Below are positions 325-20,725 of a DNA stretch of 64,000 nt, in pieces (within the stretch, counting starts at the first letter, position 1; the number at the start of each line of letters is the position of its first letter). The position numbers and the translations under genes were made by a program. Under the pieces are notes generated by a model. It made no database searches. It was not told the DNA's origin and was given only the letters and a program-made list of their open reading frames with translations. Source of the DNA: a virus; IMG/VR virus record IMGVR_UViG_3300028173_000007, positions 1 through 64,000 of that record; one strand, 5' to 3'.

Positions 325-864
325 ATGATGATGAGGTCCTTTCTGGTCGGGCTGCTGCTGGTGCTCTGCTTGCCGCTCGGCGGCGCGACGATGTGCGACA
401 CCGACTCCGACGTGCCGATGCCGTGCGCGCAGGCTGACGGTGGCGTGTGCGCCTCGCCGTGGTACATCAATCGCGCGTTCGGGGTGATTCGCAACGGCGA
501 CGCCAAGCCCATCCTCGCGCTGAACGTCTACTGGCAGAACGAGCCCGCAGGAGCGGCGCTGACGGTCAACGGGGTCGTGCTCCAGTGCCAGTTCACGCCG
601 GGGTCGCGGTCGTTCCCATGCTCGGGTGGGACGTGGACGGTCACCGTCGAGGCGGCTGACGAGATCGTGGTCAAGTTCCACCCCTACAGCGGGACACCCG
701 GCAACGGGACCGCGATCTACTACAAATTCAGCGGCGACTCGTCCATTCCGGCCGGGCTCAAGCAGCCGAGCCAAATCGGGACCCTCGGTGAGTACGACTG
801 GCGCGACCAGCGCACGGGCACAGGCCGCGACCATCACGCCGACGTCTACTGGCGTGCGCGGTGA
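325..864 (+). CDS. Putative secreted beta-rich protein with signal peptide and several Cys
   Basis: MMMRSFLVGLLLVLCLPLGG hydrophobic N-terminus; GGGGAG upstream; typical codon usage. Confidence 0.7.
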   Translation: MMMRSFLVGLLLVLCLPLGGATMCDTDSDVPMPCAQADGGVCASPWYINRAFGVIRNGDAKPILALNVYWQNEPAGAALTVNGVVLQCQFTPGSRSFPCSGGTWTVTVEAADEIVVKFHPYSGTPGNGTAIYYKFSGDSSIPAGLKQPSQIGTLGEYDWRDQRTGTGRDHHADVYWRAR

Positions 865-958: not shown

Positions 959-3900
959 ATGACGGCCCGTGACCTGCTCCGCTCGGCCCGCGAGGCCCTC
1001 TCCGCGGCCGAGTGGCTCCCCGTGCCCGCCCGTGTCGGTGCGGCCCTCTGGCGGCGCCAGTCGGCGACGCTGGCCAAGGGCGCCGGGCACAAGTACGTCC
1101 GCCGCGAGCGGAACCCGAACCCCCCGCCCAAATGGCGCTACTACTACCGGGCGGCCAGCGCGGCCCGCGGCCTCCGCGCCGAGCTCTACGCGGGCGAGAA
1201 GTTCCAGATCGACCACGACGGCCAGGCGGGGCACTTCGAGGTGGTGGAGCTCAGCGGCGACCGGGTGACGGTGCGGCACGACGAGTCCGGCGAGCTCGTC
1301 ACGGTGACGCGGGCGGCCCTCGAAGCCATGTTCCGAGACCACCACGCGGAGGCCATCGACGCGCACCGCGGCCGGCTCTCGCGGGACCTCACCGCGGCGA
1401 AGAAGCACGGCGCCAGTCGGCGCCAGGTGGCCCGGCTCGAAGATGAGGCCCGCCGCCACGGCCACGAAGACCTCGTGAAGCCGAAGCAACGGACCCGAAG
1501 CCCCGAGGGCATCCCGCGCACCGAGGCGCCGGATCTCCTGCTCGTCGGGTGCGTCAAGACGAAGGCGGCGCACGACGAACGGGTGCCCGTGCGCGACCTG
1601 TACCGCTCCCGCACATGGAACCGCCGGCGGGACTACGCCGAAGCCCGCGAGCTCGTCGAGGGCCCCCCCTGGGCGGTCGTGTCGGCCGGCCTGGGCGTGG
1701 TGGACCCTGACCGGCAAACGAAGCGGTACGACGCCCAGGTGAAAGACCTCAAGGGGCCAGCGCGGGCGAAGTGGCTCAAGCGCGTGCGCGGCGCCTTGAT
1801 CGGGAAGCTCTACCGAGGGGAACGGCCCGACACGCCCCGGCGCATCGAGATCATCGCCGGCGCCGACTATGTGAAGGCCGTTCGGGAGGCCCTCGAAGGG
1901 CTCCCCGTCGAGGTGGTGCAGCCCCTCGAAGGCGTGGGGCTCACGCACCAAGAACAGTGGCTCCAGGCCCAGGCCCAGGAGCTCAAGGCGCAACATGAGA
2001 CGTTGGCAGAGCAGGCCAACCGGGAGTCGCCAGGCCGGCCCGAGTGGCACGGCCGCCTATCGCACCTGGGCCTATCGTGGGCCGATTGGGAGGTGCGCCA
2101 CGACTCCGCGGCCGACGCCGTGCGGCGCATCCTGCACCTGCGCCAGAGCTCCGACGGCTGGCACTTCGAGGCGGCCGCCGCGAAGGCCCTCGGTGAGACG
2201 CTCACCGACTACGCCGGCTATCCGGTCGAAATGGAGGACGAAGACGGCGAGTCGTGGCTTGAGGTCGAGCCCGAAGAACTCCCGTCGTGGTTCGGCCGGC
2301 CCGACTGGACGCCCGAGTTTGCCGCGAAGGTCTACCGGCGCGTGGTCGAGCACATCGACGACTGGACGCCCGACGAGGACGACCACCCCGACGGCGTGCC
2401 CGAGTGGGCCGAGGGCTTTCTTCACGAGGTCATGGCCGACGAGCTCGAAACGCCGCCCGACGGCCTGCGCTTGTCGATGGTGTCGAAGGACGAAGCCCGC
2501 CGGTTCATCACGAAGCATCATTCCGCCATGCCGAAGTGGAACCATCGCGGGGTGGTTTTCACCCTGGGCGTGCGTGACCCGCGGGGGCGGCTCGTCGCCG
2601 TAGCCACCGCGAACACCCCGACGGCGCGCGCCTGGCGAGACCACCCGCGCGAACTCGACACGGGGCGCATCCTGCCCGGCCACAACGTGTTGGAGCTCAC
2701 CCGCGTTGCCAGCGACGGCAGCGCGAAGGGCGCCGCGTCCATGCTGGCCCGGCGCGTGGTCGCCCTCGGTGAGAAGGCGAAGCGCGGCGACCCGACCGCC
2801 CCCCACCTCGTGATCACCTATCAACTGGCCAGCGAGAACGGCACCACCTACCGGGCCCTCCGCGACGTGGGCCTGCGCCCCGTCGAGCTCACGAAGGGGC
2901 GCAAGGGCGCCCGCAGGGCCGGCGGCCAGGTCGACGAGAACGACGCGGCGAAGCTCCCGAAACTGCGGTGGGAGGCCGGCCCGGCGGCCATGCCGGCCCG
3001 CTGGGACCTGCTCAACGCCATGAACGCGCGGCGTGAGCACCCCGAGCAACTGGCGACCCTGTTTGCGGCCGAGCGGGCAAACGTCGCCCTCGACGACTAC
3101 TTCGCCAGCGGCTCGAACCACGAAGGCGAGATCCGAGGCTTCCACCGCCTCGGGATCAACCCCGGCGTTGCCGCCGACCGGCTCAATGACCGCAACGTCC
3201 ACGAGCTCAAGCAACTTGCGGGGACCGGCCGCAAGGTCTTCGTGGACTCTGGCGCCTTCGGTGAAATCGACTTCAATGTCCCGAAGAAGGGGCAGAAGGG
3301 CCCGCCGCGGCCGGACCTGCCCATCGGGGCGCCGTTCGTGGTGAAGCCGATCACAGACGACGAGTGGCAAAAGCGGCTGGGCCGCTATCACGAGCTCGCC
3401 CAGGTCCTCGGCGGGCAAATGTACGCCGTCGCGCCCGACAAGGTGGCGCACCAGTCGGAGACCCTCGAACGGCTGGCCAGGTACGCGCCCCAGGTGCGCG
3501 AGATCGCCAAGCTCGGCGCGCACGTCATGGTGCCGATGCAGAAGGGCCAACTAGCCATGCCGGACTTCGCCCAGGTGGCCGCGAAGCGCCTCGGGATGAA
3601 GCCGGACGCCCTCATCTGGGCAATCCCCATGAAAAAGGACGCGACCACCCTCGACGAGCTCGAAGACTTTGTGCGCGAGGCGAAGCCCGGCCGCGTTCAC
3701 CTGCTCGGGGTGGGGCCCGACTCGAAGGCCTACCCGGCGATCCGCGCCATGTTCGACCGGGTGGCCCCCGGCACGGCGCTCACCCTCGACAGCGTGAAGA
3801 TCACCGCGGCCGTGGGTCGCGACGGCACCACGCCGGACGGCAAGCCCAAGGCCCGCGCGCTCACCGCCGCGCAAGACAGGGTGCGGGAGGCTATCGAGGC

Positions 3901-4339
3901 CTCCGCGTTCCGCGCAGACGACCCCGAGCTCCCCGACTACACCGACCACGCCGCCGAGCCGAGCGAGTGGACGACGGAGGCCAGCCGCCGGCGGCTGTGG
4001 GCTACCTGGCGCGGGCGGGACGTGGCCCGGCTCACGAAGACGATCCGAGACCTGCGCGCCGAGCACGGCGCCAGAAAGCCCGTGCCCGAGCCGCTGGCCC
4101 GAGCGAGGGCCGAGCTCAAGACCCTACGCGCCGACGCGAAGCTGTGGCGAGACGACCCCGACGAGTGGATGCAGGCCCCGATCCCCGGCGCAGACCACCT
4201 GAGCAACTACGAGGACCCGTCCGTCGCGACTGACCTTGAGGACACCTGGCGCGACTGGTTCGTAGGCGCCGGCTCGGTGGCCGTCCGAAAGGAGCGCGCC
4301 ATCGTAGAGGCGTTTGGCGAAGTGGGCCGGAAACGGTAG
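959..4339 (+). CDS. KGAGHKY-tagged polyvalent protein 1: tag + DUF6884-like + Mom/XF1762-like GNAT + TGT/DpdA-like domain (1126 aa)
   Basis: LAK|GAGHKY at K40 (nt 1076). LLVGCVKTK..VRDLYRS..VSAGLG..YD (DUF6884-like). EARRFITKHH..LELTRVA..ASML..VITY..ENGTTYRA (Mom-like). VFVDSGAF..APDKV..VHLLGVG..LDS (TGT-fold-like). Motifs recognised by eye. Confidence 0.8.
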   Translation: MTARDLLRSAREALSAAEWLPVPARVGAALWRRQSATLAKGAGHKYVRRERNPNPPPKWRYYYRAASAARGLRAELYAGEKFQIDHDGQAGHFEVVELSGDRVTVRHDESGELVTVTRAALEAMFRDHHAEAIDAHRGRLSRDLTAAKKHGASRRQVARLEDEARRHGHEDLVKPKQRTRSPEGIPRTEAPDLLLVGCVKTKAAHDERVPVRDLYRSRTWNRRRDYAEARELVEGPPWAVVSAGLGVVDPDRQTKRYDAQVKDLKGPARAKWLKRVRGALIGKLYRGERPDTPRRIEIIAGADYVKAVREALEGLPVEVVQPLEGVGLTHQEQWLQAQAQELKAQHETLAEQANRESPGRPEWHGRLSHLGLSWADWEVRHDSAADAVRRILHLRQSSDGWHFEAAAAKALGETLTDYAGYPVEMEDEDGESWLEVEPEELPSWFGRPDWTPEFAAKVYRRVVEHIDDWTPDEDDHPDGVPEWAEGFLHEVMADELETPPDGLRLSMVSKDEARRFITKHHSAMPKWNHRGVVFTLGVRDPRGRLVAVATANTPTARAWRDHPRELDTGRILPGHNVLELTRVASDGSAKGAASMLARRVVALGEKAKRGDPTAPHLVITYQLASENGTTYRALRDVGLRPVELTKGRKGARRAGGQVDENDAAKLPKLRWEAGPAAMPARWDLLNAMNARREHPEQLATLFAAERANVALDDYFASGSNHEGEIRGFHRLGINPGVAADRLNDRNVHELKQLAGTGRKVFVDSGAFGEIDFNVPKKGQKGPPRPDLPIGAPFVVKPITDDEWQKRLGRYHELAQVLGGQMYAVAPDKVAHQSETLERLARYAPQVREIAKLGAHVMVPMQKGQLAMPDFAQVAAKRLGMKPDALIWAIPMKKDATTLDELEDFVREAKPGRVHLLGVGPDSKAYPAIRAMFDRVAPGTALTLDSVKITAAVGRDGTTPDGKPKARALTAAQDRVREAIEASAFRADDPELPDYTDHAAEPSEWTTEASRRRLWATWRGRDVARLTKTIRDLRAEHGARKPVPEPLARARAELKTLRADAKLWRDDPDEWMQAPIPGADHLSNYEDPSVATDLEDTWRDWFVGAGSVAVRKERAIVEAFGEVGRKR

Positions 4340-4442: not shown

Positions 4443-5354
4443 ATGCGGCCGCTACCCCTCGACCATCCCGTGCGTGTGACCGAGGACGCGACGCCCGACG
4501 CCCGCGGCATCTTTCCAGGCCTCGGCGACGGCGGCCCGCCTCCCGTTCCGTTGTCGACCGTCCTCTCCCCGCTACGGGGAAGCGACCGGGCCGGCGCGAG
4601 GGCCGCCCTTGAGGCCCCGACGCGCGAAACCCTGGCCGACCTCCGCGGCGCCTACCGAGACGCCGGCCTGGCCGGGCCCAAGCTCGCCGCGGCCATGCAA
4701 TCGGCCGCGCGCTACATCGCCCACATGCGCCGGCGCAACCCACGGGGGCGCACCGAGCCCGATCACCTGCGGAAAGCGGCCTACTACGCCGGCGCGGAGG
4801 CCCTCGCGGCCAAGGTGGCGCGGGAGGTGGAGATCCCCGGCTTCATCGGCCGAGTCGTGTGGATGGCCCAGGCGCGCGACCTCCGCAAAGGGGCCGGCCA
4901 CAAGTACCTTCGCCGCGTGAAGGGGGCGAACGGGAAATGGCGGTACTTCTACAAGGTGAGCGGCGGCCGCGGCCTCGGGCACGCTGACGAGTTCCACGTC
5001 GGCGCGAAGTTCGCCGGCGGCGGCGGTCACTTCGAGATCGTGAGCGAGTCCGGCGACATCGTGGAGATCCGCCACGACGAGACGGGGGGGACGCGCAGGC
5101 TGGACAAGGCGGCCCTCTCCGAGCTCCTGCGAAAGCACCACGTCGAAATCGACACCGAGGGTTTCAGCTACTACGTTGGGCGCCTCGGGCCAGCCGACGC
5201 CTATCCAGGCACGGCCGGCGCCGCCGCGGCGGCGCGCTTCCACGGGCTCGACTATCACGAGCATGGAGCGCCCGACGTGCATCCACGACGGCGCGGCCGC
5301 GGGCAGGTGGCCGCGGCTGACGGACTACTGGCCAAGGCCAAGGGGGCAGCATGA
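4443..5354 (+). CDS. KGAGHKY-tagged protein 2 (long leader + tag module, little cargo; 303 aa)
   Basis: GGAGGA RBS; LRK|AAYY, LRK|GAGHKYLRRVKGANGKWRYFY..GHFEIV..IRHDETG; ends LLAK|AKGAA. Confidence 0.8.
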   Translation: MRPLPLDHPVRVTEDATPDARGIFPGLGDGGPPPVPLSTVLSPLRGSDRAGARAALEAPTRETLADLRGAYRDAGLAGPKLAAAMQSAARYIAHMRRRNPRGRTEPDHLRKAAYYAGAEALAAKVAREVEIPGFIGRVVWMAQARDLRKGAGHKYLRRVKGANGKWRYFYKVSGGRGLGHADEFHVGAKFAGGGGHFEIVSESGDIVEIRHDETGGTRRLDKAALSELLRKHHVEIDTEGFSYYVGRLGPADAYPGTAGAAAAARFHGLDYHEHGAPDVHPRRRGRGQVAAADGLLAKAKGAA

Positions 5355-8300
5355 GCACGGACCTGATCACGCGAGCCGCGGCCCTCCTGGGGCGCGTGCG
5401 CGGCCACCTCGACGAGATCCCCGAGGCCGCCGGCGTGCTCCTGTGGGCCCGCCAGTCGGGCGAGCTCGTGAAGGGCGCCGGCCACAAGTACGTCCGGCGG
5501 GTGAAGGGCGCGAACGGGAAATGGCGGTACTTCTACGACGTGACGGGGGGCCACGGTGCCGCGCACCACGCAGAGATCCACCTCGGCGCGAAGTTCAAGG
5601 TTGAGCACGAGGGCAAGGCCGGCCACTACGAGGTGACGAAGGAAGACGGCGGGTGGGTGACCATCCGGCACGACGAGACGGGACACGAGGCCAAGGTCAA
5701 GAAGACCACCGTTCAAACCATGATCAAGCGCCAGCACGCGGAGCTATTCGCGGCGCACCGCGAGCGCACCGCGCGAGACGTGAAGGCGGCGAAGAAGTAC
5801 GGCGCCAGCGCGAAGCAGAAAGCCCGCCTGGCGGCGCACGCGAAGAAGTACGGGCACCACGACCTCGCCAACGAACTCACCGACACGGCCGCGCCCGATC
5901 ACGCCGGCGAATACGGGCGTCACGCGGAGCGAGCTCGCCACCACCACGACGAGGCCAGCAAGGCCACGCCCGGCACCCCCGAGCACAAGAAGCACCGCGC
6001 GGCCAGCCTGGCCCACGAGAAGGCGCGCGAGGCGCATAGCCGAGCCATCGGTGACACCGAGGCCTCCGCGGGCGCCTTCGAGGCCTCGAAGGCCGCGGAC
6101 GCACTCACAGTCGAGCACCCCGAAGTCCACGCGGCCCGCCGAGCCCTCGAAGCACACGAGCGGAAACGTCAACAGGTCTCCGACCGCATGTACCGGCGAA
6201 CGAAGGCGGGCAGCGTCTCCACCGGCGCCCGTGCCGCCTACGACCTCAAGATGGGGCAGCTAGTCGAGCAGGAAGGCCACCTCCGCGCGGCCCTCGCCGC
6301 GGCCGAGGACAAGGCCAAGCGCGGGCCCGACGGCGAGCTCACCACCGACGAGCTCGCCCAGCGCCGCGCCGCGGCCGAGGCCTCGGCGCTCAAGCGCCGG
6401 GGGACCGGGAAGCCCGACGAGCCCGACAACGTGGTGCAGTTCCCGAAGCCCGAGCCGAAGCCCGAGCCCGAGTCGACCCGACCCGACCCGGCCCTACTCG
6501 CCCCGCTGGCCGACAAACTCGTCTCGCAACTGCTCCCCGGCATGAAGGGGCACGCGAAGCGCGCCGAGCTCCTGGCCATCGCCGCCGAGCACCTGGCGAA
6601 CATGGTCGGGCAAGAGCCCTCCGAGGAAACGGCGCAGGCCCTCGCGGCCGCCCTCACGACGAAGGCGCGCGAGCTCTCCGCGTCCAACGTGGTGCGCCTG
6701 GGCGGCCTGGGCGGCCGGAAGACGAAGCAGGAGAAGGCCGAAGCCTGGATGCGAGACGCGGCGGCGAAGCAGCGCGCAGGCCTGCGAGACGGCAAGCCGG
6801 GGCACCGCATCCACTACACCGGCGACCGGGCCAACAGCCCGCGCAACGGCGAGGTGATCGCCGCGTTCCCCGGTCACTACCGGGTGAAGTGGGACGACGG
6901 CACCGAAGGCAACGTCGAGCGGATCGGGGTGCGGGGCTGGGATAACGCCGGCGCCCGCTTCCATTGGGAGGACGAGAACCCGAGCGGCGACAGGAGCCCC
7001 GAGGCTATCGAGGAAGGCAAGCGGCAAGCGGTGGCCCACCGGGAGGCCGCCGACAAGGTGGCAGCGGCAGAGAAGGCCGAGCAGGACCGGAAGCACGCGG
7101 GGTGGCACAAGCCCGCCGACCGCACCGAGGCGTCCAAGCGGCTCAAGGCCGCGTTGCAGAAGCTCTACCCCGACGGCCAGTGGAGCGTGACCGGGGGGAA
7201 GGGGACCGGCTACGGGTGGCTCAGCATCAACGGCACCTCTGAGGCCGAGGGGAAGCTGCGCGACGAGCACCGCATTATCACGAGTGTTTCCAGCGGCAGT
7301 CGTGATTCCACCGTGCGGGACCTCGAAGAAGCGTCGGGGATCTTCACCCCCGGCGAGGGCCTCGCGCCGGGCAGCGTGGCCAGGAAGCACGCCGACAAGG
7401 CCGCAGCCGAGGCCGCAAGGCGCGAGGGCGCCGGCACCACGCGCCACGTCGGCCAGGTGGTCACCATCGGATCCAACCGCCGGCGCTACGTCGTGGTGAG
7501 CTCCGAGCAGGTGGGGTCCAGCCCGCCCCGCTACAACTTGTCCGCCCTCTCGGGCGGGATGCGGGGCTCGGGGCCGTCCTCGGTGTCCGCCGACGACCTC
7601 ATCCCCCACGCCGACCAGCGGATCACCTTCGACGGGGCCCAGGCGGCCGACCGCCGGGCCCGCGCGCTCCGCTCGCTGGCGCTCAACAGCAACGCCGACC
7701 CCGACACAAAGCAGCGGGTCCGGCTGGCGGCGAGCTCGGGGGGCGCGGTCCTCTCCCCGGCCGAGCTCGCCCAGCGCAAGGCCGCCGCCGACGCCGCGGC
7801 CCTCAAGCGCACGAAGGCGCCCGAGGTCCCCCCGGTGAAGCCCCCGGTGAAGCCCCCGGTGAAGCCCCCGGTGAAGCCCCCGCAAAGCGACTCGGGCCGG
7901 TCGGACGCTGACAAGCCCTCTCCCCAACCGGCGGCCCAGCGTCCGGCCGGCTTTTCTGCCCCCGTCGCTTTCACCGGCGAGACCCGCGAGAGCGTGACGA
8001 AGAAGCGCGGAAACACCGTCTGGAGCGTGCCCCACGCGGGGAGCATCCCCGACGCGCAGTTCACGGCCATGAAGGACGCCGCGCGGGAGCAGAAGGGCTA
8101 TTACCTGCGCGGCCAGGGCTTCACGTTCCGCGACCCCGAACACGCCCGGCAATTCGTCGCGGCCTGGGGCGCCGGTGACGGTGCGGTCCCGACGACGACG
8201 CCCGACGCGGACGGGAAGCGCCGCGCCAGGGCAGATCGGGCGAAGAAGCGAACGAAACCCGACGGCTTCGACGCGGCCGAGGGCGCCGGCGAGGGCTGGC

Positions 8301-10903
8301 GCCGCAAGCGGGACGCCCTGACCGGAACCGAGGGCAAGGTCGCCCGCGTGGTGATCACGCAGAACCCCAACGGCACGCACTCGGCCACCGTCCACGGCCG
8401 CAAGCTGGAGGGCGAGCATCGGTTCCCCTACGACGCCGGCAAGGCCGCCGCGGCCGAGCTCGGGCGCCTACAGGCGATCCGCAACGCCGACCGCAACCGG
8501 GAGATCGCCAGGCGCCAGGCCTCGAAGTTGGGGCTGGTGAGGGCCGAAGCCCCCCCGGCTCCCCCTGCGACGATCCAGCCGACCCGCGACGAGACCGAGC
8601 CGGCCATGACGGCCCGGCACGCGGCCGAGATCCAAGCCATCGAGGACGGCGAGCTCAAGCCCAGCGAGAAGTTTGACGCGCGGCGAGACGCCAAGGTCCG
8701 GCACGAGGTCGAGGCCTTCGAGGCCGGCCACCGCTGGCAGGACCCCGCGAAGGTGCGGGAGACCCACGCGAAAGCCACGCGCCGCGGCTTCAACACCTGG
8801 GGCGGCCGGCGCCAGGCGGGGTGGAAGCATCATGGAATGGAGACCGAGCGCGCGGCCCTCCCGAAGATCATGGAGCGCCACCGCGCACACGAGAAGGCCC
8901 AGCGCGCCCACCAGCGCGCCACCGGGTCGGCGGCCTCCCGGCTGACGGCGCTCTATAACCACCTGACCAACGGCGGCGCATGGCGCGACAGCGCGCCCGA
9001 GGTGGGCGAAGTCGTGAAGCACCGCAACGACACCAACGAGGTCAAGACGGTGGGCTCTCGCAACGCCCGAGTCGGGGGCCGCCTGCGCGGCCACCGCGAA
9101 CTCGGGATGCCCCACGCCGAAGGCCTCGCCGCGGTGATCTCGTCGGCGACCGACGACGACCTGTCCGAGCTCTCGGCCGGGCACGCCCAGCACGGGGGGC
9201 TACAGTCGCAGGGCTCCCCCGGCCTCTCGCCCTACGGTTTCGGCATGGAGGCCGCCAGCGCCGAGGTGGAGCGCCGGCAGAAGGCGGGCACCTGGGCGCC
9301 TTCGAGCGAGGCCCCAGCGCCGCGCACCGTGGCCGCCCTCAACACGGCCCGAGAGGCGATCAAGGCCGCGCGCAAGGCGCGAAACGACGCCAGCGACCGT
9401 CGGACGGAAGGCCGGCAGAAGCTCGCCGGCGAACACCTGGCGAAGATCGGCGCGACGCGAGCCCCGGCCCCGAAGCGGACCAGTCGGCCGAAGGCCGCCG
9501 CGGAGGCCTACGCGGCGGACTACGGGCGGGACGCCCGCATCGACCACCACGCCGAGCGGGTGTCGGTGGTACGAACGACCGGCTGGGATGGAAAGACGCC
9601 CTCGTGGCACGTCGTCGAGCACCACCACGACGGGACGCACACGCGGCACGCGGACAGCGCCATTGACCGCAAGCGGGACGCCCTCGCCTACGCCGAGGAC
9701 GTGCGGAAGACCCGCAAGGCCGCCGGGGCCCCGACGGACGCCCACCTGGCCATCGCGGCCGACCTCGACCACCTCGCCCGGCACGTCGACAACGCCCAAT
9801 ATGAGGTGCCCGAGCACCTGCACGGGGCCCTTGACGCGCGCGACTTCAAAGAGCGCGGAGTGGCGCACTCCGACGCATGGCGCGAGGCGCACCCGCGCGG
9901 CACGAACCCCCTCGGGCTGGAGCGGCACAACGACGCGACCTACATGCGCGAGCTCGCACACAAGCTCCGCTCGGGCATGAGCGGCAATACGCAGGTGATC
10001 GGCGGCGAGATCCACGGCGGGCCAGGCGTCCTCGCACGCCACGAGGGCGGCTATGCGAAGGCCCGAGCGAAGGCCGTCGCGGACAACGCAGATCGGCCGG
10101 AACAGCACCGCGCGGGGAACTACGGCCACGTCGTCGGGCACAACAGGTCGGCCCGTGTGGCCGACCGCGCCCAGGTCATGCACGACGCCGAAAAGCACCT
10201 GGGCAAGTGGCGGGCGATCATGCACGACCCGACGACCCCGGCCGGCGATCTGCACGAGCCCGAGCAGGGCACCGCGAACCACGCGATGCGGGTGGCGAAC
10301 AGCGACGCGCACCGGAAGGCCTACCGCAACGGCTACACCTTCGAGCGCGGCGGCCTCCCGGCCGAAGGCGTCGAGCGGGACTATCACGAGGCCCTCACCG
10401 GGATGGACAACTACGCGCGAAAGCGCGCCGTCGAGGCCATGAAGTCAACCGGCGTTCGCCCCGTGCCTCACGGGCACTTCCACACCGCGCAATCGAAAGC
10501 GCCCGGCGTGCCGCTGGCGAAGGCCTACCCGCCCGCGCTCATGCGACCCTTGGCGCGCGCTGACCGCCTCCTGGCGCTCGCCAAGGGCGATACGGGGTGG
10601 CGCACCATGCCGAACGTCGTTCGGATCAAGTTCGGGGCTGGCGGGAAGATTGAGGCGGGCCCGTCGCACATGATCGGCCGGCGCTTGCAAGACGTGAAGC
10701 GCGGCGCCAAGGCGGCCGTGGACACGTCGAGGATGGCGTCTGGGTATCATGTGACCGTCAACGAGGCCGGCGTGCGCGCGAGTGGCTTCCAGCCAGAGAA
10801 GCACGCGGAGACGGGATACGGGGGGTATGGGTCTTTCACGACCGGGACGCAGCCGACCAGTCGGGGGCGTTGCATGGCGCGCAACGGATGGCCCGATACA
10901 TGA
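5351..10903 (+). CDS. KGAGHKY-tagged giant polyvalent/internal virion protein 3 (1850 aa), with an LPD29-like segment
   Basis: ATGA overlap with the previous stop; LVK|GAGHKY at K41. His/Ala/Arg-rich. EASKRLKAALQKLYPDGQWSVTG..GWLSI (LPD29-like, ~7118-7233). LAK|A and LAK|G sites near the C-terminus. Confidence 0.85.
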   Translation: MSTDLITRAAALLGRVRGHLDEIPEAAGVLLWARQSGELVKGAGHKYVRRVKGANGKWRYFYDVTGGHGAAHHAEIHLGAKFKVEHEGKAGHYEVTKEDGGWVTIRHDETGHEAKVKKTTVQTMIKRQHAELFAAHRERTARDVKAAKKYGASAKQKARLAAHAKKYGHHDLANELTDTAAPDHAGEYGRHAERARHHHDEASKATPGTPEHKKHRAASLAHEKAREAHSRAIGDTEASAGAFEASKAADALTVEHPEVHAARRALEAHERKRQQVSDRMYRRTKAGSVSTGARAAYDLKMGQLVEQEGHLRAALAAAEDKAKRGPDGELTTDELAQRRAAAEASALKRRGTGKPDEPDNVVQFPKPEPKPEPESTRPDPALLAPLADKLVSQLLPGMKGHAKRAELLAIAAEHLANMVGQEPSEETAQALAAALTTKARELSASNVVRLGGLGGRKTKQEKAEAWMRDAAAKQRAGLRDGKPGHRIHYTGDRANSPRNGEVIAAFPGHYRVKWDDGTEGNVERIGVRGWDNAGARFHWEDENPSGDRSPEAIEEGKRQAVAHREAADKVAAAEKAEQDRKHAGWHKPADRTEASKRLKAALQKLYPDGQWSVTGGKGTGYGWLSINGTSEAEGKLRDEHRIITSVSSGSRDSTVRDLEEASGIFTPGEGLAPGSVARKHADKAAAEAARREGAGTTRHVGQVVTIGSNRRRYVVVSSEQVGSSPPRYNLSALSGGMRGSGPSSVSADDLIPHADQRITFDGAQAADRRARALRSLALNSNADPDTKQRVRLAASSGGAVLSPAELAQRKAAADAAALKRTKAPEVPPVKPPVKPPVKPPVKPPQSDSGRSDADKPSPQPAAQRPAGFSAPVAFTGETRESVTKKRGNTVWSVPHAGSIPDAQFTAMKDAAREQKGYYLRGQGFTFRDPEHARQFVAAWGAGDGAVPTTTPDADGKRRARADRAKKRTKPDGFDAAEGAGEGWRRKRDALTGTEGKVARVVITQNPNGTHSATVHGRKLEGEHRFPYDAGKAAAAELGRLQAIRNADRNREIARRQASKLGLVRAEAPPAPPATIQPTRDETEPAMTARHAAEIQAIEDGELKPSEKFDARRDAKVRHEVEAFEAGHRWQDPAKVRETHAKATRRGFNTWGGRRQAGWKHHGMETERAALPKIMERHRAHEKAQRAHQRATGSAASRLTALYNHLTNGGAWRDSAPEVGEVVKHRNDTNEVKTVGSRNARVGGRLRGHRELGMPHAEGLAAVISSATDDDLSELSAGHAQHGGLQSQGSPGLSPYGFGMEAASAEVERRQKAGTWAPSSEAPAPRTVAALNTAREAIKAARKARNDASDRRTEGRQKLAGEHLAKIGATRAPAPKRTSRPKAAAEAYAADYGRDARIDHHAERVSVVRTTGWDGKTPSWHVVEHHHDGTHTRHADSAIDRKRDALAYAEDVRKTRKAAGAPTDAHLAIAADLDHLARHVDNAQYEVPEHLHGALDARDFKERGVAHSDAWREAHPRGTNPLGLERHNDATYMRELAHKLRSGMSGNTQVIGGEIHGGPGVLARHEGGYAKARAKAVADNADRPEQHRAGNYGHVVGHNRSARVADRAQVMHDAEKHLGKWRAIMHDPTTPAGDLHEPEQGTANHAMRVANSDAHRKAYRNGYTFERGGLPAEGVERDYHEALTGMDNYARKRAVEAMKSTGVRPVPHGHFHTAQSKAPGVPLAKAYPPALMRPLARADRLLALAKGDTGWRTMPNVVRIKFGAGGKIEAGPSHMIGRRLQDVKRGAKAAVDTSRMASGYHVTVNEAGVRASGFQPEKHAETGYGGYGSFTTGTQPTSRGRCMARNGWPDT
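7829..7882 (+). repeat. 12-nt tandem repeat (CCCCCGGTGAAG)x4.5 encoding a (PPVK)4 linker
   Basis: Direct reading of the sequence; in frame within 5351..10903. Confidence 0.95.
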
Positions 10904-11508
10904 AGGACATTCGCGCCATCCATCGCCACGCCGACCCGATGAAACACGCCGAGGATCTCATCCAAGAGCACAACGCCGCCGCCCACGCGGCGGCCGACGA
11001 GCGGGCCGCCGCCGAGCCGGCGAGGATTCGAGCGCGTGACGCGGCGTGGCGGGCCGAAGCCGCCAGGTCGTCGCGAGCCGAGGCCAAGGCGATCATCGCC
11101 CACGCCGACCGGGTGACCCCCGCCGCCCTCCGAGGAATTGCCCGCCGCGCTGCGGCTATGTCGCCCCAGGCAAGAGACAAGGCGCACGCGGCGAACATGG
11201 CCCACGCCCGAAACATGCTCGCGATGGGCGAGCGTGCCGGCGAGGTCCCCGCGAACGCCGCGGAGCGCGCGATGGCGACATATGCCCACGCTTCGCGGTT
11301 CGGGGGCCTTGAACTGGCGACGGCGGTGGCGGCCCTGCCCTCGCTTCGGGCCCTTGCGGCTCACAAAAACGACCCAACGATCATGCCGCTACGGTTCGAC
11401 CTGGCAAACGCGCGCAACGGGCAGCACACCGGCGACGGGTGGGAGGCGTTCGCCCCCGAGCACGTTCACATCGAAGCCGCGCCTCGCCGCGCTCGGGGTG
11501 CGGCGTGA
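10900..11508 (+). CDS. Ala/Arg-rich hypothetical protein
   Basis: ATG 10900 overlaps TGA 10901-10903 (ATGA coupling); same frame as ORF 10870..11508. Confidence 0.65.
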   Translation: MKDIRAIHRHADPMKHAEDLIQEHNAAAHAAADERAAAEPARIRARDAAWRAEAARSSRAEAKAIIAHADRVTPAALRGIARRAAAMSPQARDKAHAANMAHARNMLAMGERAGEVPANAAERAMATYAHASRFGGLELATAVAALPSLRALAAHKNDPTIMPLRFDLANARNGQHTGDGWEAFAPEHVHIEAAPRRARGAA

Positions 11509-11770
11509 GCGGCGGGCCCCAGGAGACGCCCCAGGCCTTCACGCCGCCCCTGTCCATGCCCTTGACACCTCTGGCGGCTGTTTCCTACGGGCTTCCTGCC
11601 ACTTCGGCGCCGCCCACGGGCCCGTGGGATGGCGGCCCGGTGTTCATCCAGAGCTTGTCCTCGCCTCTACCCGACGAGTGCCCGGCGGAGCGGGCGTGCC
11701 CTAATGTCGAGCAGACGGATGACCTGAGCGCGATTGACTAGCACCTGAGCTTTCAGGATGTGCCCGCTGT

Positions 11771-12016
11771 GTGTTCGACTGGCGGGCCATGCTCCGCGAC
11801 TGGACTACCCGGCTGGTGCCGTTCGTGATCGCCTGGGCCGCGTGGACCGAGCTCCGCGTTCACGATCTGGAGCAGGAGAACCGCCGATTGACCGCGGAGA
11901 ACGCCCGACTCGACGACGACGTATCGAAGACCACCGACGCGGTGCAGGCGGCGAAAACGCAGCTTGCCGGCGTGGGCGCGCGCCTCGATACCGCCCTCAC
12001 GCTACTGAGGAATTGA
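11771..12016 (+). CDS. Small membrane-anchored coiled-coil protein
   Basis: LVPFVIAWAAW hydrophobic segment followed by heptad pattern LEQENRRLTAENARLDDDV. Confidence 0.65.
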   Translation: MFDWRAMLRDWTTRLVPFVIAWAAWTELRVHDLEQENRRLTAENARLDDDVSKTTDAVQAAKTQLAGVGARLDTALTLLRN

Positions 12017-12018
12017 CC

Positions 12019-12450
12019 GTGTGGGTGCTGGTGCTGGTGCTACTCCTGCCCGACGCAGGGCTCCCCGACGCGGGCCCCGTTGCCGTTGACGCGGCCGCCC
12101 CCGATGCGGGAACCCCCGACGCGGCGATCCCGATGCTCACCCCCGAGGCCGCGGCCAGGCTGGCCGCCATCGAGGCCCGCGAGCGGGTCCACGTCGAGTG
12201 GCTGCGCGCTGTGAGGACGCCCCGCGTCGGCCCCGTCCCGAAGCGGGTCGAGCGGACGCGCCGCCGGCGCGCGCACCGCATCGGCCGCGCGGAGGCCCGC
12301 CGACGAGCTCTCGCGGTCGCGCGTCGCGCCCGAGCTCGTGCGGAGGCGCGCGCCCTGCTATTCGAGGCGGCGGCGCAGGTGGAGCAGGCGCAGTATGAGG
12401 TGCAGGCCCTCGCCCCAGAGCAGGAGCAGGAGCAGGAGCAGGCCCCGTGA
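12019..12450 (+). CDS. Signal-anchored protein with PDAG/DAA repeats and Arg/Ala coiled coil
   Basis: GAGGA RBS then GTG 12019; VWVLVLVLLL-PDAGLPDAGPVAVDAAAPDAGTPDAA; ends (EQ)n; GTGA overlap with the next gene. Confidence 0.6.
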   Translation: MWVLVLVLLLPDAGLPDAGPVAVDAAAPDAGTPDAAIPMLTPEAAARLAAIEARERVHVEWLRAVRTPRVGPVPKRVERTRRRRAHRIGRAEARRRALAVARRARARAEARALLFEAAAQVEQAQYEVQALAPEQEQEQEQAP

Positions 12451-14954
12451 GCCAGTTGCCCTTGGTTTTTGAGCGCGCGGCCAGAGCGCGCGCCTCGCGG
12501 GCCGTCGAGGTCCCCGAATGGATGGGTCGCATCCTGTGGGTGAGGTCGCGCGGTGAGCTCATGAAGGGCGCCGGGCACAAGTATATCCGGCGCGTCGCGG
12601 CGAAGAACCCGCCCCCGAAATGGCGCTACTACTACAGCGCCGGCGGCGGTGCAGGCCTGGGGCACGCCGACGAGATCACCACCGGCGCCGCCTTCAAGCT
12701 CTCGCACGGTGGCCAGGCGGGGCACTTCCACGTCACGGCAGAACTCGACGGCGACCTCGTGCGCGTCCGCCACGACGAGACGGGGCACGAGGTCGAGATC
12801 ACGCGGGCGGCCCTCGCGGCCATGCTGCACCGCGAGCACGCCGCCCTTGTGAGCGGACACGCCGCGAAGGTCAAAGAGGATCTCGAAGCGGTGAAGAAGC
12901 ACGGGACCGCGGCCCAGCGCGCCCGTGTCGAGTCCCGTGCCCGGCGCTACCAGCACACGCGGCACCTGGCAGAAGACGCAGGGGTGGGCGTCCGCCCCTA
13001 CGTCTCGCCGCGCGAGCGTGAGCTCACCCCAGCCGAGGCCGAGGTGCGCCGCGTGGCCTACGCGATCAAGCGCGCCCACGAGACCCCCGAGGACACGAGG
13101 ACCGCCGCGCGCGCGATGGCCCAGGCCGTGCCCGCCCTGGCCCAACTTGTGCCGATCCCGTCCTCGAAGGGCGACACGCGCGCGAACGCCGCCCTCTGCG
13201 AGCAGATCGCCGGCATGGTTCACGGCGCCTCGGTGGCCGACGTGCTGCACCGGCTGGCCCCGACCGAGCCCTCACACCAGCGGCGCAAACGTGGCTTGGC
13301 CGGGCACACCGCCGACGCGCACCGCTTCGAGGTCACCGGCGAGCTCGACGCGGCCCGGCCCGTGATCTTCGTCGACAACGTGACGACGAGCGGCGCCACC
13401 TTCGAGGCCGCCGGGCGCGACGTTGGCCGCGGTACAGGGGTGGCCTACGCGAAGGCCACGAGCGACAACCCCGCCGCACCTGCACCGACCGCCTGGCGAA
13501 GCGGCGCCGATGGGCACGGCGGGGCCGGGCTCCGCATCCTGAGCCTGTTTTCTGGCGCAGGTGGCTTCGATATGGGGCTCCACGCGGGGCTACCTCACGC
13601 GCGCACCACCGGCCTATGCGAGATCGACCCCTACGCGCGCAAGGTCCTCGCGCGCGCCTTCCCCGGCGTCGCCCAGCACGAGGACGTGAACACCCTCGCC
13701 AGCGGCGAGGACAAGCCCGCAGAGCGCCCGAACATGATTATCGGGGGCTTCCCATGCCAGGATCTCTCGGCGGCCAACGTGCGCGCCAAGGGGCTCAGCG
13801 GGGAGCGGTCGGGGCTTTACCGCAAGATGCGCGACATCATCGAAGGGCAGGACCCGGATTGGGTCGTCTTCGAGAACGTCCCTTTGCTGCGCTCACGCGG
13901 CCTCGACGTGGTGCTCATGGATATGCAGGCCCTCGGCTATGAGGTGACCTGGGATTCAATCTCTGGCGCGTCGGTGGGAGCTCCACACCAGCGAGATCGG
14001 GTGTTCGTGGTGTGCCACCGCCCAGGCGTCAAGCTCGACTGGCAACGGCCCGACCGTGAGCTCACGGGGCACCACTGGCAGTCGGACCCGCCTCCGCTCC
14101 GCGACAGCGGGACGCACAGGCAGACCCGGATCGCACACACGGTCCTCGCGGGTAACGCGGTGATCCCCCAGGTGGCCGAGCACCTGGGGGAGATCATCGG
14201 CGGGAGCTCGCCAGGCCAGGCCGAGCCCACCGGGAAGGAGATCGCCAGGTGGACCGGCGACGCATGGGTGAGTCCGAAGGGGAAACCCGTGGTGAAGTTC
14301 CCGCGCGCCGGCCTGCTACGCGACGGCGTGGTCTACGAGAACGAACACACGAAGCAGGACGGGGGCGGCATCCGAGAGGGCGACAAGGTGTGGGTCCGCA
14401 ACACCGACTCGGCCGGCGGCGGGGACGTATACGACGCAGAGCAGCGGCTCGCCCTCGACCACCTCACGCGGAACACGACGATCCCCCCGGCGATGCAAAC
14501 CACGGTGGACGAGCTCGTGTCCTGGGGCATCGTCGACAAGACCGACAAGGGGTACACCTTGACGGGCTGGGGTGAGCACGCCGTCGAGAACATGAGCCAG
14601 TGGACCTACGACGGCGAGGGCGGGGTCAATGATGCGTTCCTCGGGCGCGTCCACTACGTCAACGGCGACAGCTACGACGTGGAGCTCCCGAACGGGGATA
14701 TCGAGCCCTTTGACGAAGAATACGTCCGGCTCATGCCGACGGTCGTCAAGAGCGACTGGAAGGGCTACGGCAAGGCGGATTCCGAGAATACGCCGCAGTA
14801 CGACACGGGGCGCGCGGGGCGCGACCGGGGCCGCCAGCTTATGCACTGGGTCGACGGCTACATCAATCCGAAGTTCGCCGAGTGGCACATGGGTTTTCCG
14901 AGGGGTCACTTTGACGTAGGCCAGGCCCCAGACGACTATAAGCCGATCAAGTGA
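12447..14954 (+). CDS. KGAGHKY-tagged protein 4: tag + ComF-like phosphoribosyltransferase + C5 DNA cytosine methyltransferase (835 aa)
   Basis: LMK|GAGHKY at K40. LVPIPSS..VIFVDNVTTSGATF (PRPP-binding loop). ILSLFSGAGG, CEID, GGFPCQDLS, FENV, QRDRVFVV and GNAVIPQVA are C5-MTase motifs. Confidence 0.9.
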   Translation: MSQLPLVFERAARARASRAVEVPEWMGRILWVRSRGELMKGAGHKYIRRVAAKNPPPKWRYYYSAGGGAGLGHADEITTGAAFKLSHGGQAGHFHVTAELDGDLVRVRHDETGHEVEITRAALAAMLHREHAALVSGHAAKVKEDLEAVKKHGTAAQRARVESRARRYQHTRHLAEDAGVGVRPYVSPRERELTPAEAEVRRVAYAIKRAHETPEDTRTAARAMAQAVPALAQLVPIPSSKGDTRANAALCEQIAGMVHGASVADVLHRLAPTEPSHQRRKRGLAGHTADAHRFEVTGELDAARPVIFVDNVTTSGATFEAAGRDVGRGTGVAYAKATSDNPAAPAPTAWRSGADGHGGAGLRILSLFSGAGGFDMGLHAGLPHARTTGLCEIDPYARKVLARAFPGVAQHEDVNTLASGEDKPAERPNMIIGGFPCQDLSAANVRAKGLSGERSGLYRKMRDIIEGQDPDWVVFENVPLLRSRGLDVVLMDMQALGYEVTWDSISGASVGAPHQRDRVFVVCHRPGVKLDWQRPDRELTGHHWQSDPPPLRDSGTHRQTRIAHTVLAGNAVIPQVAEHLGEIIGGSSPGQAEPTGKEIARWTGDAWVSPKGKPVVKFPRAGLLRDGVVYENEHTKQDGGGIREGDKVWVRNTDSAGGGDVYDAEQRLALDHLTRNTTIPPAMQTTVDELVSWGIVDKTDKGYTLTGWGEHAVENMSQWTYDGEGGVNDAFLGRVHYVNGDSYDVELPNGDIEPFDEEYVRLMPTVVKSDWKGYGKADSENTPQYDTGRAGRDRGRQLMHWVDGYINPKFAEWHMGFPRGHFDVGQAPDDYKPIK

Positions 14955-16921: not shown

Positions 16922-16930
16922 TGGTAGGAT
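16922..16930 (+). promoter_or_regulatory. Extended -10-like element TGGTAGGAT, probably driving a leaderless mRNA
   Basis: In-frame GTG at 16938 follows the element after a 7-nt spacer; no RBS. Confidence 0.5.
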
Positions 16931-19727: not shown

Positions 19728-20725
19728 GGTTCCGCGCGACGGTCACCGCCCCAGGCGGCGGGGAGCCCCACGAGTTCGCCGCCGGCGAGGGTCTCACCAT
19801 GACCCCGAGCCCCGAGACCGTGGGCCTGTGGGTGGGCCGCGTTCAACACCGTTCAGGCCGGATGCCTGGGGCCTACCGAGGCTTCGACCCCGAGGACCCG
19901 CGCCAGGTGGCCGACGCGGCCGACTTCCTTCGGTGGAAGGGCTGGCGCGTCGAGGTCCACGAGGACACGGTTCCGCTTCTCCCGAAGCCCCCCGGCTTCG
20001 ACAGGCGCCCCGAGGCCGAGCGCCCGGCCGGTGAAGGCTTCACGCTGGCCGAACTCGGCCAGTCGCACCTTGCGGGCGAGCTCGCAGCCGAGCGAGTCGC
20101 CGCGGCGCGCGCCGAGCTCGCGCAGCCTGCGGCCAACTTGGCGAAGGCCCACCCCATCGGGCCGCCACCCAAGCGCAACAGAAAGACCTACCCGTACCAG
20201 GGGACCATTACCTATGCGGGGATCATCCCGATCCGCGTAGAGAACCGGGCCGGGTCGATGCGCCGCGGCGTGGACGGCGACGGGCGCAAGTGGGCCACGA
20301 AGATGCACGACCACTACGGGGAGGTCGTCGGCACCCTGGGCGTGGATGGTGACCCCGTGGACGTGTTCGTCGGGCCGCTGGAGCACGCACCCTGGGCGTA
20401 TGTAGTCCATGCCACCGACCCCCGCACGGGGCGCTACGACGAGTGCAAGATCATGATGGGCTATGGCACCAAGCGAGAGGCGGCGGCGGCCTTCCGGGGG
20501 CACTACGACGGGCCCGGCTTCTACGGGGCGATCCGCAAGGTGGCGTTGACGGAACTTCTCGCGTGGCTTCGTGATCCGAAGAATCGAGGTCAAAAGGTCA
20601 CGGCCGGTTCCGCACTTTCAAAGGGCTGTGAGGTAGAGTCCCCCGGCGAGGGTCGAGCCGCCCGCGCAGAACGCGCGCAGAAGCGCGCCCACACGCAGGC
20701 CGCGCCGAAGCGCGGGGAGGGGTAG
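19724..20725 (+). CDS. Inorganic pyrophosphatase-like (polyvalent-protein type) protein flanked by LAK|A and LSK|G sites
   Basis: IRVENRAGSMRRG..W..M..HYG....GVDGDPVDVFVGP..YDECKIMMGY is the DGDxxD family I PPase-like signature. Confidence 0.8.
   Translation: MRFRATVTAPGGGEPHEFAAGEGLTMTPSPETVGLWVGRVQHRSGRMPGAYRGFDPEDPRQVADAADFLRWKGWRVEVHEDTVPLLPKPPGFDRRPEAERPAGEGFTLAELGQSHLAGELAAERVAAARAELAQPAANLAKAHPIGPPPKRNRKTYPYQGTITYAGIIPIRVENRAGSMRRGVDGDGRKWATKMHDHYGEVVGTLGVDGDPVDVFVGPLEHAPWAYVVHATDPRTGRYDECKIMMGYGTKREAAAAFRGHYDGPGFYGAIRKVALTELLAWLRDPKNRGQKVTAGSALSKGCEVESPGEGRAARAERAQKRAHTQAAPKRGEG

Follow-up and report, generated by a model that had tools for sequence, protein, structure and literature searches.

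A multi-domain phage protein links a DpdA/TGT-like barrel to Mom-like and DUF6884 modules

Introduction

Of the means by which phages counter restriction, DNA marks of the 7-deazaguanine and Mom types belong to the best studied. DpdA enzymes, which possess the TGT fold, swap guanine in DNA for 7-deazaguanines, DpdC converts dPreQ0 to dADG, and Mom of phage Mu modifies adenine. To our knowledge, all characterised DpdA enzymes are small and cytoplasmic and fall into four phage subfamilies and one bacterial subfamily.

Many phages have DpdA as their sole gene of this kind and are believed to draw on host preQ0 (PMC6884629). DNA-modifying enzymes can also travel with the virion, as P1 DarB illustrates that such enzymes can be packaged (PMC5512222). 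Here we describe a further large family that has the DpdA-like fold and catalytic residues and is without a curated model. Its members mostly reside inside giant multi-enzyme proteins encoded beside head genes.

Results

We analyzed a stretch of 64,000 nucleotides (the window) that forms the first part of the IMG/VR record IMGVR_UViG_3300028173_000007. The source is an uncultured phage with high GC content (71%), and the record measures 89.6 kb and is 63% complete, leaving ~37% of the genome missing. An ORF on the + strand (959-4339) encodes a multi-domain ('polyvalent') protein of 1,126 aa with four parts, namely an N-terminal tag, a DUF6884 domain, a Mom/XF1762-like GNAT and a DpdA/TGT-like barrel module. 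A spurious reading frame in DNA of 71% GC was ruled out by homologues and domain matches: one homologue is 97% identical, and another 58 large homologues exist. A tblastn search of the whole protein against 50,697 GenBank phage records gave no match. The initial annotation had proposed three candidate DNA-modification domains in one tagged polypeptide. All of them lie within this ORF, and their assignment withstood tests by HMM, structure, profile-profile comparison and gene neighbourhood. A zincin peptidase was not seen in the protein. No published account of the three-module combination was found in the literature searched, and the architecture points to an undescribed anti-restriction toolkit.

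The tag corresponds to a ~165-aa N-terminal module (977-1477, + strand) that is common to six of the record's ORFs, with starts at 959, 4443, 5351, 12447, 16929 and 24797 (module HMM, E 5e-22 to 4e-69). It consists of a KGAGHKYxRR...KWRYYY segment, a small beta-rich core (...RHDESG) and a helical KKHGAS...HGH tail. No Pfam family matches the module, and a search of the Protein Atlas with the tag gave no usable match. Among the homologues, a regular expression for the tag retrieved only the protein itself and the relative with 97% identity, plus part of the pattern (GxGHKY) in the homologue P0165, while divergent and internal copies beyond these were recovered with phmmer and the HMM. The homologue P0065 carries two internal copies (phmmer).

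The genes for the five other large proteins that share the module lie around those for portal and MuF. Portal (20728) and MuF (23484) lie 16-19 kb downstream of the ORF within a run of similar large ORFs. Homologues of the protein carry InPase, ART-PolyVal, ddrB-ParB, C5-MTase and RelA/SpoT domains, the first four of which are typical of polyvalent proteins (PMC5512222). With three enzyme-type domains and a tag in one polypeptide encoded together with virion genes, the protein resembles polyvalent proteins such as P1 DarB, which likewise join several unrelated enzymatic domains and are found beside portal/MuF (Iyer et al. 2017, PMC5512222). A text search of that study for TGT, Mom, TIM-barrel and YaaA domains returned none; the barrel matches no Pfam family and is therefore not among the LPD domains of the study that are included in Pfam. 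Because the N-terminal module is shared, the gene sits upstream of portal and MuF, and polyvalent proteins offer an analogy, we infer that the protein may be packaged and become active within the head or just after injection.

The DUF6884 (YaaA-like, DpdC-like) domain had been suspected at ~1532-1965 and was placed at nt 1538-1966 (+ strand, aa 194-336) by Pfam PF21818 (E 1.5e-23; 83.9 bits against a gathering cut-off of 30). Both motifs described for DUF6884 (PMC11701544) are intact, CxxxK as C198-VKT-K202 and the LSAxxG type as VS242AGLG. C198 (nt 1550-1552), which sits in the CxxxK motif, is the single cysteine of the entire protein. Three PADLOC DpdC models matched weakly (E 2.7e-4, 5.9e-4 and 3.4e-3) and partially, at profile positions ~45-103 of ~312. 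DUF6884 is present in 17 of 60 large homologues, and in all four barrel-carrier records that have it, it shares the ORF of the barrel.

The Mom/XF1762-like GNAT module (2381-2974, + strand) comprises a core of aa 502-672 (nt 2462-2974), close to the acyltransferase previously placed at ~2465-2975, and a conserved N-terminal extension that begins at aa ~475. The NCBIfam model XF1762_fam NF045478 matched at positions 4-143 of 143 (E 1.9e-12) with a score of 47.2 bits, just under the curated cut-off of 50. Among PHROG families, phrog_1384 ('Mom-like DNA modification protein') matched at E 2.4e-6. PF25680, the Mom model of Pfam, did not match. When the module was aligned with Mu Mom and the Mom protein of phage L048 using hhalign (prob 68%, E 4.8e-5), HHS/HYS and ELTRV/ELNRM were paired. 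The resemblance to Mu Mom/XF1762 lies in similarity along the whole XF1762 model, the match to the PHROG 'Mom-like' family and the HH[SY] and EL[TN]R motifs. In contrast to Mu Mom, which is a late protein of ~230 aa and has a Com regulator, the domain is here part of a 1126-aa protein, and it differs further in the sub-cut-off score and the missing Pfam Mom match. Homologues of aa 475-690 are found in 18 members of the barrel family (phmmer).

For the third domain, an AF2 model built from a 40-sequence alignment reached pLDDT 91 and displayed eight beta/alpha units, whereas single-sequence input gave pLDDT 36. The core of this (beta/alpha)8 barrel spans aa 713-973 (3095-3877, + strand). A TIM barrel had been annotated at ~3092-3800 with the strings VFVDSGAF, PD, HLLG and DS. 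The barrel and all of these motifs (PD within APD) were found, but the proposed end at 3800 proved too early, as a C-terminal extension (aa 974-1126; 3878-4336, + strand; phmmer and alignment) continues the module to nt ~4336. The conserved blocks of this extension (~975-1022 and ~1056-1121, with a DYTD...W motif) trail the barrel in many relatives, both fused and stand-alone (phmmer).

The motif residues are D763 (3245-3247; DSGAF, end of beta3), D827 (3437-3439; APD, after beta4), Q861 (3539-3541; beta5 position), H914-L-L-G917 (3698-3709; HLLG) and D944 (3788-3790; DS, end of beta8), all on the + strand; D944 falls in strand 263-269 of the AF2 model. D763, D827, H914, G917 and D944 are kept in 228-229 of 229 family sequences (D763 and D944 in 228, D827 in 229), and an aromatic residue (F or Y) occupies position 767 of DSGAF in 227. 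The initial annotation had singled out the TGT fold's catalytic Asp residues for inspection; they are thus present and, at this level, invariant. Q861 is found in 218 of the 229 sequences and replaced by His in five, including that of L048, which is linked to Que genes. The His of this Que-linked subgroup corresponds to His181 of DpdA (PMC10164549). The structural Zn site of TGT is absent from the barrel module because the C-terminal extension has no Cys. The DpdA sequence of phage 9g likewise lacks a CxCxxC motif and, judged from sequence, the Zn site may not be a defining feature of phage DpdA.

The barrel region is more than a chance similarity because at least 836 representative clusters (50% identity) match it at E<=1e-3. 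It was matched by none of the models of Pfam (TGT PF01702, DUF6610), NCBIfam and PADLOC DpdA, tblastn against the 50,697 GenBank phage records gave chance-level matches only, and sequence and profile searches of the PDB found only a designed TIM barrel. Two independent structure searches, by comparison, ranked DpdA or TGT first. In hhalign, 229 family sequences aligned with a diverse phage DpdA profile (prob 91.6%, E 8e-7), which paired D827 and Q861 with LDG and FHxGE of DpdA. Against the 9g family alone, the probability was 73-78% over 142-145 columns with the pairings DSGAF=DSGAF, APD=LDG, HLLG=VHGFG and CDS=CDS. DSGAF also pairs with DSGGF of E. coli TGT; against this one TGT sequence hhalign gave a probability of 0.4%, with the motifs nonetheless in register. 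In the barrel and in DpdA, the DSGAF, HxxG and CDS motifs are located at matching strand ends. The family HMM had no match in records with DpdA1 (9g, Hilltopfarm), DpdA3 (CP220, phiST) or DpdA4 (HVTV-1), a set that includes actinophage, and 9g-type DpdA clusters are also without a precomputed Pfam domain. These data show that the barrel, in which all catalytic-type residues are intact, falls into a subfamily of the DpdA/TGT base-exchange fold that is large, uncatalogued and Zn-less.

Phage DpdA1 (Enterobacteria phage 9g gp03, CAjan DpdA; PMC6884629) is among the closest described systems. Both are TIM barrels with DSGAFS, an Asp after beta4, [H/Q]xG after beta5, VHxxG at beta7 and the CDS nucleophile motif; both span ~300 aa and show no evident Zn motif, and hhalign links them at 73-92%. 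Yet identity is <20%, Gln stands for His at beta5 and K-K for G-G at beta6, and the barrel described here has its own conserved C-terminal extension, usually resides inside giant multi-domain proteins and is usually carried by genomes without que genes. Compared with the bacterial DpdA/DpdB/DpdC system (Salmonella Montevideo; PDB 7UI4; PMC10164549), the barrel lacks Ins1, Ins2, Ins8 (the large DNA-binding insertion of DpdA) and the Zn site, and it is phage-borne without restriction partners (DpdD-K) rather than part of a host defence island. DpdA4/DUF6610 (Halovirus HVTV-1 gp69; PMC10516641) is similar in being a divergent DpdA subfamily missed by Pfam TGT. The DUF6610 HMM weakly matched the Que-linked subgroup of the barrel family (E ~4e-5 to 1e-4, sub-cut-off) but missed the barrel of ORF 959-4339 and most relatives, and the family HMM missed HVTV-1.

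The absence of queuosine-pathway genes noted for the window extends to the entire 89.6-kb record (63% complete), in which we detected no FolE, QueD, QueE, QueC, QueF or TGT; the search elsewhere in the genome that had been suggested for folE and queC/D/E was hence negative across this record. A QueC match was found in only 2 of 16 complete barrel-carrier genomes, so most family members are without a dedicated base supply. One Que-linked relative is encoded by L048, a 70-kb phage genome (97% complete), whose full-length family member (HMM E 1e-84) directly adjoins QueE (TIGR04349, E 2.5e-83) and QueC (E 7e-27) and lies 2.4 kb from a Mom gene (PF25680, E 5e-31). The pathway of L048 is partial, as QueD/PTPS, FolE and QueF are absent. 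Within the family the barrel is repeatedly fused to, or located beside, Mom-like and DUF6884 modules. Mom/XF1762 matches occur in 12 of 47 barrel-carrier records, in 10 of which they share the ORF of the barrel or lie at most 4.2 kb away. ParB-like domains are recurrent partners of the barrel in other proteins.

Discussion

With moderate confidence, we interpret the product of ORF 959-4339 as a phage polyvalent protein, a multi-enzyme cargo for DNA hypermodification and restriction evasion. The barrel would flip guanine out of DNA, and D827 and Q861 would recognise this base by its 2-amino-6-oxo edge. D944 at the end of beta8 would attack C1' to give an intermediate in which enzyme and DNA are covalently joined, D763 of DSGAF at the end of beta3 would serve as general acid/base, and guanine would be replaced by a 7-deazaguanine base of the preQ0 type. 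It would be supplied by the host pool or by genes within the missing 37% of the genome. DUF6884 with the sole cysteine may process or recognise the inserted base in a manner comparable to DpdC, while the Mom-like GNAT may add a second, acyl-type mark, either to adenine as in Mu or to the deazaguanine side chain. N-terminal module and gene position suggest that the protein could be placed inside the capsid or tethered to it, so as to work on phage DNA during packaging or just after ejection, as is the case for P1 DarB. If the activity is confirmed, the protein would enlarge the catalogue of DNA base-exchange enzymes, tie DNA hypermodification to the polyvalent/injected-protein strategy and provide a test case for a DpdA-type enzyme in a phage without a preQ0 pathway.

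The same enzymology might operate without packaging. The protein would then be a late cytoplasmic enzyme that acts on replicated DNA before packaging, and the N-terminal module would serve DNA binding or oligomerisation. Canonical DpdA and Mom are indeed cytoplasmic in their action and follow replication (PMC10516641; Mu Mom annotation), and the two internal copies of the module in P0065 are unlike an N-terminal targeting signal. Nevertheless, six large multi-enzyme ORFs flanking portal/MuF share the module, homologues contain hallmark polyvalent domains, and P1 DarB exemplifies packaged DNA-modifying enzymes (PMC5512222). We therefore regard a non-packaged enzyme as possible, though not what we would expect.

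It is also conceivable, but unlikely in our opinion, that the TGT-fold barrel does not insert 7-deazaguanine at all. It might excise or exchange another base in the manner of a DNA or RNA glycosylase, or target host tRNA or host-modified DNA. In that event the polyvalent protein would attack or disarm host nucleic acids after entry instead of marking phage DNA. Such an activity would fit the 14 of 16 complete carriers without QueC and the 89.6-kb record without que genes, the Gln that most members have at beta5 like tRNA TGTs instead of the His of DpdA, the conserved K-K pair in place of the G-G of TGT/DpdA at beta6, and the fused DUF6884, a domain predicted to bind damaged DNA and to flip bases (PMC11701544). 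On the other hand, the family member of L048 adjoins QueE and QueC, the guanine-reading Asp and Gln/His as well as both catalytic Asp residues are conserved, and host preQ0 is thought to supply many DpdA-only phages (PMC6884629).

A more far-reaching variant of our preferred reading of a cargo for hypermodification appears distinctly improbable to us. Here, a single virion-borne or portal-tethered machine would write a novel compound mark. In one version, the barrel would insert a base obtained without a phage que pathway, and the GNAT and the single-Cys DUF6884 would derivatise that same base; the barrel family would then represent a fifth DpdA subfamily with a substrate of its own.

Finally, the reading of the third domain as an ordinary TIM-barrel enzyme, for example an aldolase, a sugar epimerase or a glycosidase-like protein, that has no functional relation to base exchange in nucleic acids and only convergent TGT likeness is disfavoured and very improbable, given that DpdA or TGT came first in both structure searches, that DSGAF, HxxG and CDS at the DpdA strand ends are paired in the profile-profile comparison, and that Que, Mom and DpdC-type genes are neighbours and fusion partners of the barrel.

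The protein belongs to a group of tagged ORFs around the portal gene

The source record in IMG/VR is a linear sequence of 89,587 bp with 71% GC and an estimated completeness of 63%, and the window represents its first 64 kb. A portal (20728-22572), a MuF-like protein (23484-24797), a capsid protein and baseplate J are encoded. A run of very large ORFs lies around the portal and MuF genes, and the first of them (959-4339, plus strand) encodes the three-module protein of 1,126 aa. Just upstream, close to the record's left end, a 179-aa ORF (325-864, plus strand) possesses a hydrophobic signal-like N-terminus (MMMRSFLVGLLLVLCLPLGG). Directly upstream of the portal gene, ORF 19724-20725 (plus strand) encodes an InPase (PF18823) domain protein; six homologous polyvalent proteins carry this domain as a fusion with a DpdA-like barrel.

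Searched with an HMM of the tag, the ~165 aa at the N-terminus, the record gave six matching ORFs (starts at 959, 4443, 5351, 12447, 16929 and 24797). The copies (959-1477, 4443-5354, 5351-5900, 12447-13020, 16929-17460 and 24797-25360) are located at the head of the large ORFs around portal and MuF, except in ORF 4443-5354, where the tag occupies the C-terminal half. Its layout comprises KGAGHKYxRR..KWRYxY, a small beta-rich core ending in RHDETG and a helical KKxGxxxxQxAR..YGH tail. The tag matched no known family, and divergent copies are present in other phages. P0065, a metagenomic relative of 1,997 aa, carries two internal copies (aa 752-892 and 1399-1531), the second immediately before its DpdA-like barrel, so that the tag behaves like a unit that can be repeated rather than a strict N-terminal signal. 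The tag is a module common to cargo-like proteins, with a putative role in capsid targeting.

Judging from its tag and gene position, the protein may be associated with the capsid. We consider a polyvalent DNA-hypermodification protein the most likely reading of ORF 959-4339 and hold it with moderate confidence. On this reading the barrel would exchange guanine in the manner of DpdA, using D944 as the nucleophile and D763 as acid/base, and further marks would be added or processed by DUF6884 and the Mom-like module. Cytoplasmic action of the same enzymes at a late stage, rather than as cargo, is less likely; this alternative concerns timing only and overlaps with the hypermodification reading.

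Text searches of the polyvalent-protein survey (Iyer et al. 2017, PMC5512222) retrieved no TGT, Mom, TIM-barrel or YaaA domain. The DpdA literature examined covers bDpdA and DpdA1-4 only; a term search of one DpdA paper yielded no DpdA fusion, and a literature search no Mom-DpdA pairing. No published description of the finding came up in the literature searched.

The third module is DpdA-like

The third domain had no match in Pfam, NCBIfam, PADLOC or PDB sequences, and tblastn of 50,697 GenBank phage records gave none. An exhaustive HMMER search recovered 836 representative clusters at E<=1e-3 (292 at E<=1e-30), whose members stand alone as proteins of 270-450 aa or form portions of polypeptides as long as ~4,300 aa. 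Pattern scans located the family at 46 loci in IMG/VR and at 13 in bacteria or MAGs. Its HMM found no match in DpdA1-, DpdA3- or DpdA4-carrying records. The top match in BFVD was an 'ART-PolyVal-like' protein of an uncultured phage holding the same domain (E 3.5e-17). Further matches at E<=1e-3 included chains named queuine tRNA-ribosyltransferase or tRNA-guanine transglycosylase (Mycobacterium, Arthrobacter, Achromobacter, Sulfolobales viruses) as well as unnamed proteins of phiST and nt-1, phages known as DpdA carriers. Aligned profile to profile with the DpdA family of phage 9g, the domain reached 73-78% probability across ~145 columns that extend from DSGAF to the CDS motif. A more diverse DpdA profile (9g-like plus Vibrio, Stenotrophomonas, Rhizobium, Sulfitobacter, Arthrobacter and Mycobacterium phage sequences) gave 91.6% (E 8e-7, 93 columns). 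The TIM-barrel proposed in the initial annotation is real.

The catalytic residues of DpdA are Asp95 (end of beta3), Asp130, His181 and Asp256 (beta8) (PMC10164549), and conserved residues of the barrel occupy these positions. D763 (in D-S-G-A-F, end of beta3), D827 (after beta4), Q861 (after beta5), H914 and G917 (H914-L-L-G917, beta7) and D944 (beta8) are invariant or nearly so across 229 family sequences, Q861 being replaced by His in a small subgroup. The catalytic Asp residues for which a check had been proposed are present. Unlike DpdA/TGT, the barrel module lacks the Zn site (the sole cysteine of the protein, C198, lies in DUF6884) and the large Ins8 insertion, carries a K-K pair at beta6 where TGT and DpdA have G-G, and has its own conserved C-terminal extension. 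This extension reaches the ORF end and is found with the barrel in stand-alone relatives as well, so the module spans nt ~3095-4336 and not the ~3092-3800 first annotated.

A family member is encoded beside QueE and QueC

A compact island (9986-14496) in L048, a 70,214-bp IMG/VR record of a phage 97% complete, suggests a tie between the barrel family and 7-deazaguanine chemistry. Here a full-length stand-alone member (family HMM E 1e-84) overlaps with QueE (TIGR04349, E 2.5e-83) at the end of the latter gene. QueC is next (TIGR00364, E 7e-27), and the distance from the member to a Mom gene (PF25680, E 5e-31) is 2.4 kb; the island also holds a 135-aa ORF that matches no family. The beta5 residue of this member is His, and DUF6610, the Pfam family of DpdA4 (PMC10516641), matches the protein weakly. 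QueD, FolE and QueF were found nowhere in this phage, making the pathway partial. Against the tie, QueC was matched in only two of 16 complete carrier genomes. The lack of queuosine-pathway genes, initially stated for the window, extends to the entire 89.6-kb record (63% complete), in which no TGT, QueC, QueD, QueE, QueF or FolE was found. A large phage group with DpdA but without synthesis genes has already been noted and may rely on host preQ0 (PMC6884629). We regard a TGT-fold enzyme that has a different substrate or target as less likely than the hypermodification reading. A generic barrel is highly improbable.

DUF6884 and Mom-like modules accompany the barrel

The DUF6884-like segment annotated at ~1532-1965 is genuine (aa 194-336, nt 1538-1966, plus strand; Pfam E 1.5e-23) and contains both family motifs, CxxxK and SAxxG (PMC11701544). 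The invariant Cys of CxxxK is C198 (nt 1550-1552), and its being the only one in 1,126 aa would fit a putative catalytic role, e.g. nitrile attack as in QueF-type chemistry. Three DpdC models of PADLOC matched the domain (E 2.7e-4 to 3.4e-3), covering only part of the model length; DpdC converts dPreQ0 to dADG in DNA (PMC10164549). DUF6884 is carried by 17 of 60 large homologues and shares an ORF with the barrel in all four viral records having it.

The segment proposed as a Mom/XF1762-like acyltransferase at ~2465-2975 was likewise recovered (aa 502-672, nt 2462-2974, plus strand). It matched phrog_1384 'Mom-like DNA modification protein' (E 2.4e-6) and the full NCBIfam XF1762_fam model (E 1.9e-12, 47.2 bits versus a cut-off of 50); the Pfam Mom model did not match. 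A profile of 19 relatives of the segment aligned to Mu Mom plus a metagenomic Mom with 68% probability, pairing HHS with HYS and ELTRV with ELNRM. Mom or XF1762 models matched in 12 of 47 barrel-carrier records, in 10 of these within the barrel's own ORF or <=4.2 kb away. Using phmmer, homologues of aa 475-690 were located on either side of the barrel in 18 barrel-family proteins, and P0052 possesses all three modules in a different order.

ParB-like domains are present in five homologous polyvalent proteins. In four Mycobacterium and Arthrobacter phage loci (L063, L064, L066 and L067), an annotated ParB-like gene adjoins the annotated DpdA or lies <=2 genes away, with QueC, QueD or FolE close by; in a fifth actinophage, LizLemon (L065), the upstream gene is annotated only as hypothetical. 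The pairing of ParB-like and DpdA genes parallels bacterial DpdB-DpdA.
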